A stretch of 64,000 nt of DNA from Escherichia phage garuso: sequence record MN850566.1. One strand, 5' to 3'. Below the pieces are notes generated by a model. The model was not told the origin of the DNA, did not search any database, and was given only the letters and a program-made list of their open reading frames with translations. Shown here in pieces: positions 60,011 to 60,855 of this stretch; the first letter of the stretch is position 1; each line of letters starts with the position of its first letter. The translations under genes and the position numbers were made by a program.

Positions 60011-60085
60011 ACAGAAGACCAATTACAGCAAACTTAATCTACTCATCTGAAAGTTAATCGGACAAAGAAGATATTTGGTCTGGTC
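60011..60085 (+). repeat. conserved structured spacer element, unit a
   Basis: 5' box ACAGAAGACCAATTACAGCAA and 3' box TTGGTCTGGTC; AGACCAA pairs with TTGGTCT. Confidence 0.55.
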
Positions 60086-60094
60086 ATTAAGAAT

Positions 60095-60171
60095 TGCGGG
60101 TATAGAGAAAGGGCGTCTCACATGTCTCATTAGCATGGTATCGGCAGGTTCGACTCCTGCACCCGCCTCCA
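60095..60171 (+). tRNA. tRNA with anticodon CAT (Met, fMet or Ile2)
   Basis: Acceptor TGCGGGT/ACCCGCC (1-72 unpaired), anticodon arm CATGT-CTCATTA-GCATG, T-arm GCAGG-TTCGACT-CCTGC, CCA. Confidence 0.55.
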
Positions 60172-60176
60172 AATTT

Positions 60177-60245
60177 ACAGAAGACCGTTTACAGCAATAC
60201 TTATTAAATTTTTAGCGGAAAAAATTGAAATATACGGTCTGGTAA
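60177..60245 (+). repeat. conserved structured spacer element, unit b
   Basis: 5' box ACAGAAGACCGTTTACAGCAA and 3' box ACGGTCTGGTA; AGACCGT pairs with ACGGTCT (covaries with unit a). Confidence 0.55.
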
Positions 60246-60255
60246 TACTAAACAT

Positions 60256-60332
60256 GGTTAGGAAGCACATAAGGTATGTGCGGTCGCCTGTTAAGCGAAT
60301 GGCACAGGGTTCGAATCCCTGACTAACCGCCA
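60256..60332 (+). tRNA. tRNA-Asn (anticodon GTT)
   Basis: Acceptor GGTTAGG/ACTAACC, D-arm GCAC...GTGC, anticodon loop CTGTTAA, T-arm CAGGG-TTCGAAT-CCCTG, CCA. Confidence 0.7.
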
Positions 60333-60401
60333 AATTTAGGAGAGAAGCAATTGCTCACCGATTTGTAAGGTGCAAGTCCTTAGCCTGAATAGAAATTAAA
60401 T

Positions 60402-60489
60402 GTGTCGTTATCCCGTAGATGGTAGCGGTGGGGACTGTAAATCCCTTGTCATTGAGACTCGGTAGGTTCGACTCCTACACGGCACACCA
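60402..60489 (+). tRNA. tRNA-Tyr (anticodon GTA), long variable arm
   Basis: Acceptor GTGTCGT/ACGGCAC, anticodon arm GGGGA-CTGTAAA-TCCCT, long variable arm, T-arm GTAGG-TTCGACT-CCTAC, CCA. Confidence 0.7.
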
Positions 60490-60494
60490 ATAAA

Positions 60495-60572
60495 GGTTAT
60501 GTAGTTTAATTTGGTTAAAATACTCCCCTGTCACGGGAGATGATGAGGGTTCAAATCCCTTCGTAACCGCCA
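60495..60572 (+). tRNA. tRNA-Asp (anticodon GTC)
   Basis: Acceptor GGTTATG/CGTAACC, anticodon arm CTCCC-CTGTCAC-GGGAG, T-arm GAGGG-TTCAAAT-CCCTT, CCA. Confidence 0.7.
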
Positions 60573-60632
60573 ATTTTGAGAGGGCTATTTAGCCCCTCCC
60601 TTAAAGAGTTCTTACGAGTATTCTTTAAAGGA

Positions 60633-60710
60633 GCAGAAGACCAAATACAGCAAGAATGTATGAAATTTCAAGCCAATTTAATTTTGAAAATTTAAAACTT
60701 GGTCTGGCTC
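60633..60710 (+). repeat. conserved structured spacer element, unit c
   Basis: 5' box GCAGAAGACCAAATACAGCAA and 3' box TTGGTCTGGCT. Confidence 0.55.
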
Positions 60711-60719
60711 AACAAATTT

Positions 60720-60855
60720 ACAGAAGACCGTTTACAGCAAAACTTAAACAATCTATTTCTCCGGTAAAGAAAAGGCGAAGGTTCGATTCCTTCACTCGGC
60801 AGATGTCGAGTTGGTGTAATGGTAGCACTTAAGATGATAAACAACGGTCTGGTAA
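60720..60855 (+). repeat. conserved structured spacer element, unit d, with internal orphan T-arm-like hairpin
   Basis: 5' box ACAGAAGACCGTTTACAGCAA, 3' box ACGGTCTGGTA; interior has GAAGG-TTCGATT-CCTTC with no matching acceptor stem. Confidence 0.5.

Follow-up and report, generated by a model that had tools for sequence, protein, structure and literature searches.

The transfer RNA (tRNA) cluster of Escherichia phage garuso (MN850566.1) raises the question of what fills the gaps between its tRNA genes. In the 64,000-nucleotide (nt) stretch of this genome analysed here (the window), which belongs to a FelixO1-like myovirus of the genus Felixounavirus (97.5% identity to NC_005282 over the region), the cluster holds 18 tRNA genes, and four related elements, designated units a to d, occupy its inter-tRNA gaps. 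These elements are genuine: they are structured small RNAs and belong to a phage family that is widespread and apparently undescribed. A divergent paralogue of the Ro60 protein is encoded just upstream of the cluster, and the units are probably its Y-RNA-like partners, co-transcribed with the tRNAs and released by tRNA processing, a reading in which we infer both the binding and the expression.

Within the window, the 5' pattern CAGAAGACCNNWTACAGCAA, with up to two mismatches allowed, occurs at exactly four sites (60012, 60178, 60634 and 60721), all on the plus strand and with 0 mismatches, where 100 shuffles give an expectation of 0.00. The layout is CAGAAGACC-NN-WTACAGCAA … NN'-GGTCTGG, with N'N'GGTCTGG lying 40–105 nt after the 5' box. 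The original prediction, made from the sequence alone, had placed four units here with covarying NN dinucleotides, and both claims hold: AGACCAA is complementary to TTGGTCT in units a and c, and AGACCGT to ACGGTCT in units b and d. The units and the first flanking tRNA genes are as follows, with scores from the covariance model described below.

Unit a, 60010–60085, plus strand: lower stem GAC (60010–60012)/GTC (60083–60085), AGA opposite G60082, box TTACAGCAA at 60023–60031; helix AGACCAA (60016–60022) with TTGGTCT (60075–60081); 53 bits.
Unit b, 60175–60245, plus strand: lower stem TTAC/GTAA, G60241, box TTACAGCAA at 60189–60197; helix AGACCGT (60182–60188) with ACGGTCT (60234–60240); 54.6 bits.
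Unit c, 60631–60710, plus strand: lower stem GAGC/GCTC, G60706, box ATACAGCAA at 60645–60653; helix AGACCAA (60638–60644) with TTGGTCT (60699–60705); 47 bits.
Unit d (long form), 60718–60855, plus strand: lower stem TTAC/GTAA, G60851, box TTACAGCAA at 60732–60740; helix AGACCGT (60725–60731) with ACGGTCT (60844–60850); tRNA-like interior.
tRNA-Glu, tRNA-Met and tRNA-Asn, 59927–60332, plus strand: called by ARAGORN and Rfam; they flank units a and b at 3–10 nt.

Unit a begins 5 nt past tRNA-Glu (which ends at 60004) and stops 9 nt before tRNA-Met (which starts at 60095), while unit b lies 3 nt past tRNA-Met (end 60171) and 10 nt before tRNA-Asn (start 60256); such tight slotting of units between tRNAs recurs in unrelated phages. 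After the helix, each unit has a 3 × 1 internal loop (AGA opposite G) and then a lower stem of 3–5 base pairs (bp), and these lower stems differ among the four units yet remain complementary. In two relatives (L003 and L005) the unit b lower stem reads TTGC/GCAA, a compensatory change of A-U to G-C. Orthologue variants in FelixO1 and Moogle include four G·U helix pairs and no A·C, in keeping with an RNA read from the plus strand. As had been claimed, the units are non-coding: the open reading frames (ORFs) across them are short, spurious and overlapping, and occur on both strands.

To look beyond this phage, a protein-seeded sample was drawn from IMG/VR, comprising 80 loci that encode homologues of the neighbouring 471-amino-acid (aa) ORF, mostly 39–48% identical; 75 distant loci enter the counts. 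Most of the 80 share the same arrangement of a 7-bp helix, W-U-W-C-A-G-C-A-A, a variable A-rich interior, the complementary strand and a G, with the consensus w-A-G-R-w-U-n-n / W-U-W-C-A-G-C-A-A … A-rich … n-n-A-w-Y-C-U / G. Candidates were selected by the box only, as a guard against circularity, and an exact Watson–Crick complement of the preceding 7 nt was then sought within 260 nt. On the gene's strand 60 of the 116 boxes had one, on the opposite strand 2 of 56, and the 60 helix-positive boxes use 43 distinct helices. A stricter descriptor gave 97 matches on the gene's strand and 4 on the opposite strand, with 2.4 per strand in shuffles. A covariance model of the kind that the original prediction had proposed, built from 31 short units, detects units a to d and nothing else in the window; applied to the 75 distant loci, it returns 53 matches at E<0.01, all 53 on the gene's strand. 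All seven helix pairs show changes on both sides across 51 distinct sequences, and 99% of the cells are paired, compared with 28–48% when the partner is slid by 1–3 columns. The predicted RNA helix closing a variable interior is thereby borne out.

Inverted repeats keep their complementarity at the DNA level as well, and HNH endonuclease genes occur in the same clusters (in the window at 61167–61661), which could be taken to mean that the units are DNA-level repeats serving as binding or recombination sites or as targets of homing endonucleases. We give this very little credence, since the element always runs in the direction of transcription (53/53 here and 21/21 in the scan described below), its conserved box is asymmetric, its helix variants include G·U pairs and never A·C, and the interiors are structured RNA domains with covariation of their own.

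When all 4227 families of Rfam release 15 were searched, none matched the units at the gathering threshold, and the only matches over them at E≤10 were a partial tRNA (unit d) and two chance-level hits to Dicty_Class_I_RNA. The units in loci L209 and L210 likewise belong to no Rfam family, and no description of these RNAs was found in the literature consulted. The element, together with DUF2828 neighbours that are 29–48% identical, is found in phages of Proteobacteria, Firmicutes, Actinobacteria, Campylobacter and Prevotella. Named examples include the following.

Listeria phage LP-083-2: three units, upstream of the gene.
Mycobacterium phage Kingsolomon: three units, downstream of the gene, with a tRNA-like domain in the middle unit.
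Campylobacter phage CJLB-7: two units.
Staphylococcus phage S-CoN_Ph16: three units.
Enterococcus phage VRE9_1: one unit.
Bacillus phage vB_BcoS-136: seven units.
Prevotella megaphage Lak-B1: one unit.

The gene that accompanies the units in these phages is represented in the window by a single ORF.

471-aa ORF, 58262–59677, plus strand: predicted divergent Ro60-fold protein; Pfam DUF2828 and DUF7788, PHROG 850 'RNA-binding protein'.

Its architecture combines an N-terminal ring of helical (HEAT) repeats with a C-terminal vWA domain that has an intact metal ion-dependent adhesion site (MIDAS) motif. Sequence comparisons give no hint of this relationship: against PDB sequences, neither the single sequence nor a 35-member profile matched any solved structure, Ro60 included, and in Pfam the ORF matched neither TROVE (PF05731) nor vWA_Ro60 (PF25045) but DUF2828 and DUF7788 only. 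A positive control, gp220 of phage ET08, was readily recognised by Pfam (TROVE 4.7e-49, vWA_Ro60 2e-54). An AlphaFold (AF2) model computed from the alignment of the ORF family has a predicted local distance difference test score (pLDDT) of 85.6 and a predicted template modelling score (pTM) of 0.87, and the ten best Foldseek matches of this model in the PDB are all Ro60/TROVE structures, aligned over the full length. The MIDAS residues D279, S281, S283, T349 and D381 (DxSxS...T...D) are invariant in the family. Because the model is confident, the structural matches are full-length and the MIDAS is invariant, the ORF is predicted to be a Ro60-fold protein that sequence methods leave unlinked to Ro60. 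Homologues were detected by tblastn in 709 of 50,697 deposited phage genomes. In phage Bas63, gp130 has been described as having a Ro60 fold and as countering the 'ppl' defence system, and the authors guess that Y RNAs may be present among the tRNAs (preprint 10.1101/2024.10.10.617714). From the genus and the gene position, gp130 appears to be the orthologue of the 471-aa ORF.

Element and gene are linked whichever of the two is used as the starting point. Co-occurrence was assessed at the level of the whole genome for Salmonella phage SB18 alone, and the other counts refer to stored stretches. A unit is present in 49 of the 75 protein-seeded loci and lies within 700 nt of the gene in 43, downstream of it in 25 and upstream in 20. 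Of these 43 loci, 28 are free of tRNA genes over their whole length (about 9 kb), so the link between unit and gene is independent of tRNA clusters. The reverse approach, an RNA-first scan of IMG/VR with the pattern AAGGN4TTACAGCAA-N30-60-CCTG, yielded 120 stretches, the N4 being complemented further on in 46 and not in 74. A DUF2828 homologue was present in the stored stretch for 21 of the 46 helix-positive cases, on the same strand in all 21, versus 2 of the 74 helix-negative ones (Fisher p = 7e-9), and the two exceptions look like real units with one mismatch. The proximal helix pairs are common to the paralogous units of a genome (AGACC in FelixO1-like phages, TGGAC in Kingsolomon, AAGNC in the Bacillus and Staphylococcus phages) and differ between genomes, which is the pattern that a genome-specific trans partner would produce. 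Among the roles first put forward for the units, namely small stable RNAs, processing signals or RNAs that bind the adjacent vWA/TROVE-like protein, the last is favoured by the predicted Ro60 fold and by the same-strand tracking of RNA and gene across distant phages. A partnership with the protein is suggested because the units adjoin a Ro60-shaped gene much as Y RNAs adjoin Ro60.

Proximity to the gene also allows a cis-acting role, in which the units would be autoregulatory sites in the untranslated regions (UTRs) of the Ro60-like gene's own mRNA: many loci carry same-strand units 70–400 nt upstream or downstream of the gene, and RNA-binding proteins often bind their own message. The arrangement in the window makes this improbable, as two tRNA genes and the following promoter-like sites separate the gene from unit a.

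Two sigma-70-like promoters, 59696–59816, plus strand: TTGACA-17-TAATAT and TTGACA-18-TAAAGT, between the 471-aa ORF and the first tRNA.

In a consensus scan these two (TTGACA at 59696 and 59787) each match 10 of 12 positions. Further, the units of the window are spread over 850 nt among tRNAs; elsewhere there are arrays of up to seven units, and units far from the gene on the same contig (L167 and L016). A tRNA-like cargo is also hard to explain for a UTR operator.

Such cargo is present in unit d: its interior forms two hairpins, the second of 7 bp, with a T arm bearing GGTTCGATTCC between them and a D arm after them.

Permuted tRNA-like module of unit d, 60756–60828, plus strand: minimum free energy (MFE) fold.
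Anticodon-like hairpin, 60756–60772, plus strand: TTTCT-CCGGTAA-AGAAA.
T arm, 60777–60793, plus strand: GAAGGTTCGATTCCTTC.
Acceptor hairpin of 7 bp, plus strand: ACTCGGC at 60794–60800 (3' strand), loop AGAT, GTCGAGT at 60805–60811 (5' strand).
D arm, 60814–60828, plus strand.

The claim that none of the units folds as a tRNA needs to be qualified accordingly. It stands for the linear order, in which neither ARAGORN nor Rfam calls a complete tRNA over any of units a to d, and it fails for the interior of unit d, which is a permuted tRNA-like module. Re-ordering the natural segments of unit d, with the 5' acceptor strand and D arm in front, leads ARAGORN to call a tRNA-Thr(GGU)-like cloverleaf; it makes no call for the genomic order, and Rfam gives the partial tRNA match at 60744–60794 with 22 bits. 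An alternative anticodon stem for unit d, formed by CUUAA/UUAAG pairing, was discarded, as the permuted construct with this stem was not recognised by ARAGORN and the version with the UUUCU hairpin was. In a consensus fold of six unit d orthologues the closing helix is retained along with the hairpin, the T arm, the acceptor hairpin and the D arm; the arms are kept across FelixO1, Moogle and a relative of 48% identity. Phage Moogle has an entirely different acceptor stem (ACCCUUC/GAAGGGU), with G-CCA after it. Conservation does not extend to the anticodon-like loop, not even in FelixO1. Circularly permuted tRNA genes occur, for example, in Cyanidioschyzon merolae, and like them the unit d module has the 3' half of the tRNA ahead of the 5' half; unlike them, it joins the acceptor ends by a 4-nt loop and has its opening between the D and anticodon-like arms.

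Units a to c have short interiors without any tRNA part. At least 11 further loci contain long units that combine a T arm, an acceptor hairpin and a D arm; in several of them NCCA stands in the acceptor loop. Of nine hand-permuted constructs, five were recognised as tRNA. The acceptor loop opens with a discriminator base and then CCA in L080 (1651–1782), L035 (5422–5545), L072 (5795–5918) and L083 (2788–2905). Loops of this kind resemble a tRNA 3' end and suggest processing by RNase P or CCA-type enzymes into a two-piece RNA, of the kind reported for YrlA of M. smegmatis. Other types of cargo were also seen. Locus L035 has, at 3734–3834, a unit that encloses what resembles a near-complete, non-permuted tRNA between its helix strands, with GCTCATAGGTAGAGC as the D arm, CTTGTAA as the loop of the anticodon arm, and also a T arm. 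The same helix and box enclose an interior of ~250 nt in L038, L052, L057, L078 (about 3652–3900), L014, L023 and L025; these interiors are conserved between loci (e.g., …GGAAAGAC…GAACTGAACCGAT…), which suggests large structured cargo subclasses.

Taken together, units a to d would be genes for one family of small non-coding RNAs. Their common module consists of a 7-bp helix formed by the RNA ends, a conserved single-stranded WUWCAGCAA immediately 3' of the 5' strand, an A-rich approach on the 3' side and an invariant G, to which FelixO1-like phages add the AGA/G internal loop and short lower stem. The interior would be a free cargo position, short in units a to c and filled by the permuted tRNA-like domain in unit d. 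Transcription with the tRNA cluster is presumed to start from the promoters just downstream of the ORF, and maturation of the flanking tRNAs would excise the RNAs, RNase P and tRNA 3'-end processing setting the unit ends. The linkage of element and gene points to the common module as a likely binding site for the protein encoded at 58262–59677. More speculatively, the RNAs may play the part that Y RNAs have for Ro60, gating the ring or linking it to other factors, unit d may offer a tRNA-shaped handle or decoy, and during infection the ribonucleoprotein would probably serve counter-defence or the surveillance of RNA or tRNA.

Several observations weigh against this Y-RNA-like reading. By strict criteria, 26 of the 75 protein-seeded loci have no unit, and 25 of the 46 helix-positive RNA-first matches have no gene in the stored stretch. 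In the Bas63 study, gp130 alone, on a plasmid or in T7, restores plating on ppl hosts (preprint 10.1101/2024.10.10.617714); since it acts alone, its activity on these hosts does not need phage RNAs. The conserved box is unlike known Ro-binding motifs, and therefore the binding mode cannot be transferred from Ro60. Finally, the total number of sites in the promoter scan is not above the shuffle background, so the two promoters are suggestive only.

The gene-less RNA-first units also speak for a different explanation, namely that the units are residents of tRNA clusters independent of the Ro60-like protein (stable RNAs of tRNA size, decoys for host tRNA-targeting nucleases or tRNA enzymes, or punctuation for the processing of a polycistronic tRNA precursor) and that the gene is nearby through a shared preference for such clusters. 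Nearly all of these units lie between tRNA genes, on the tRNA strand and 1–8 nt from tRNA ends; at least three tRNAs are present in 25 of the 46 unit-positive loci versus 2 of the 74 controls; and the tRNA clusters of phages T4 and T5 have long been known to include stable RNAs without an assigned function. For one gene-less stretch (L167) the gene is carried elsewhere on the same contig, which is that of the protein-seeded locus L016; it is the only such case shown. We nevertheless regard this explanation as unlikely. It does not fit the 28 loci in which units stand beside the gene with no tRNA in about 9 kb, and the tRNA clusters of SB18, T4 and T5 are without the element. SB18, a Kolesnikvirus in the same subfamily, carries its tRNA cluster in synteny; its whole genome contains neither a homologue of the gene (best tblastn E 0.09) nor the element (no covariance-model match below E 0.6). 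T4 and T5 presumably lack the Ro60-like gene too; the same 119 Escherichia phage records were matched by the FelixO1-like DNA and protein queries. A processing signal, moreover, would not need a conserved single-stranded 9-mer plus a free cargo position.

On the reading that the units are Y-RNA-like partners of the protein, a broader proposal can be made, the chances of which we see as evenly balanced: that DUF2828/DUF7788 proteins and helix-WUWCAGCAA RNAs form a second, phage-borne system of the Ro60/Y-RNA type, parallel to TROVE Ro60/YrlA and present in hundreds of phage genera, from those of E. coli, Listeria and Mycobacterium to the Lak megaphages, with RNAs matured within tRNA clusters and an exchangeable cargo (none, tRNA-like or ~250-nt) that steers the ring to its targets, including ppl-type host defences. 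Ro60 and its Y RNAs have long been studied while their function has remained murky, and a parallel system, with a different protein family and RNA motif but the same overall design, would give a genetically tractable setting, in concrete terms the infection of E. coli or Salmonella by FelixO1 or Bas63, where a phenotype on ppl hosts is known. The reading would account for many unannotated spacers in phage tRNA clusters, and the units offer a concrete answer to the guess of the PhageMaP authors that some tRNA genes may be Y RNAs. A covariance model is available for annotating the family, and the finding ties together phage tRNA biology, tRNA mimicry and counter-defence.

No Felixounavirus transcriptome was found in the literature, and evidence of expression was sought in that of a Listeria phage. 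In the study of phage CKA15, three very abundant non-coding transcripts were reported within 2 kb upstream of the homologue, the Y-RNA idea was raised, and the homologous protein was detected in virions. The top non-coding region (26,236–26,727) was considered as a possible unit array; coordinate arithmetic places it in another, larger non-coding stretch, at about 2441–2932 of L209 (Listeria phage LP-083-2), and the other two abundant regions were given without coordinates. Locus L209 has two long non-coding stretches (1963–3030 and 6815–8026) behind strong TTGACA promoters, upstream of its unit array; one of them is, by the same arithmetic, the most abundant CKA15 phage transcript, and neither belongs to an Rfam family. 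The RtcB-like RNA ligase gene of L209, 1.3 kb downstream of the Ro60-like gene, echoes the bacterial RNA repair operon, which holds RtcB and RtcA (PMC7790460), and Rnl1 and a phosphoesterase adjoin one metagenomic homologue. As a general context, RNA-repair neighbours were rejected, such genes being present in only 6 of the 75 loci by a crude tblastn search. In the window, a homologue of the SB18 3'-phosphatase/5'-polynucleotide kinase was detected by tblastn at 39024–39497, ~20 kb from the locus; enzymes of this type heal RNA or DNA ends.

Other features of the window were recorded alongside the units. Unit d is directly followed, at 60852–61003 on the plus strand, by an RNA of ~150 nt that is closed by a stem of 24 bp (MFE −48.3 kcal/mol, z −5.3); Mooglevirus retains this RNA, its long stem showing compensatory changes. 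Its interior includes a 5-bp hairpin, CAGAC-CUUAAGCAA-GUCUG, the stem of which covaries in Moogle (AAACC…GGUUU), and the hairpin loop CUUWAGCAA resembles the unit box; this hairpin is possibly a fifth unit of minimal form. The unassigned spacer of 69 nt that parts tRNA-Asn from tRNA-Tyr (60333–60401, plus strand) has a T-arm-like AAGGTGCAAGTCCTT. At 61979–62057 (plus strand) a tRNA-like sequence passes the Rfam tRNA model at 31.7 bits without an ARAGORN call, and 62206–62280 (plus strand) gives a weak tRNA-Sec-like match. Between tRNA-Met and tRNA-Ile, at 61167–61661 on the plus strand, lies a Cys-rich ORF of 164 aa that is annotated as an HNH endonuclease in FelixO1 and has no Pfam match; locus L007 has a similar ORF in a comparable position, broken by a stop codon. 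On the minus strand, 9648–9923 matches the full length of the Rfam group I catalytic intron model (63.3 bits, gathering score 50).

Known systems that invite comparison include the small RNAs encoded amid phage tRNA genes, some with tRNA-like parts: species 1 and 2 (rnaC, rnaD) of T4, and RNAI, RNAIII, RNA1, RNA2 and others of T5. They were rejected as members of the family, as the model gave nothing significant for the tRNA region of T4, where the best E, 0.069, came from another part of that region, and nothing in 50 kb of T5. Phage T5 (L222) has eight annotated 'stable RNAs with unknown functions' at 10284–13949 and 20848–21566, three of them called tRNA-like, and these may have arisen independently to meet a comparable need. 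Metazoan Y RNAs differ in being made by RNA polymerase III, whereas the phage units would come from a tRNA polycistron, and the units are without the GGUCCGA bulged helix of the metazoan RNAs.

Closer are the bacterial and phage Ro60 systems. In YrlA, the gene for which adjoins that of Ro60, a Ro-binding stem is joined to a tRNA-like domain (Chen et al. 2014; PMC4201824), and the Ro60 of Thermus phage phiLo binds Yrl1 and Yrl2, Y-like RNAs encoded upstream of its gene (PMC12135203). The new family is distinct in protein, being DUF2828 plus DUF7788 and undetectable as TROVE by sequence, and in RNA, whose motif is neither GNCGAAN0-1G nor CGAA but WUWCAGCAA, on the 3' side of a covarying 7-bp helix. 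The GNCGAAN0-1G motif, which defines YrlA and lies near its 5' end as the putative Rsr-binding site, is absent from the first 35 nt of all 87 distinct units, and its sole match in the window, at 60774, falls in the T-arm region of unit d. Mycobacteriophage ET08, a canonical Ro60/YrlA case that Chen et al. used (PMC4201824), has GCCGAAG upstream of its TROVE gene, and the covariance model finds no match over 10 kb at this locus, whereas Kingsolomon gp54 and the Listeria protein are DUF2828 plus DUF7788 and are accompanied by the new element. With GNCGAA absent from the units and no model match at the ET08 locus, a canonical YrlA identity was ruled out. The overall design is nevertheless similar. 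As in bacterial and phage Ro60 systems, a ring-plus-vWA protein is encoded beside one to several same-strand small RNA genes, and as in YrlA, YrlB and Yrn1, the RNA ends pair into a stem that adjoins a conserved motif, here a 7-bp helix with double changes at all seven pairs, while the distal module varies. Loci often include at least one RNA with a T arm, acceptor-like hairpin and D arm, as in YrlA, which is the case for unit d, for the other loci with long units noted above and for Kingsolomon, and the NCCA in the acceptor loop of some units recalls the RNase P and CCA processing of YrlA in M. smegmatis.

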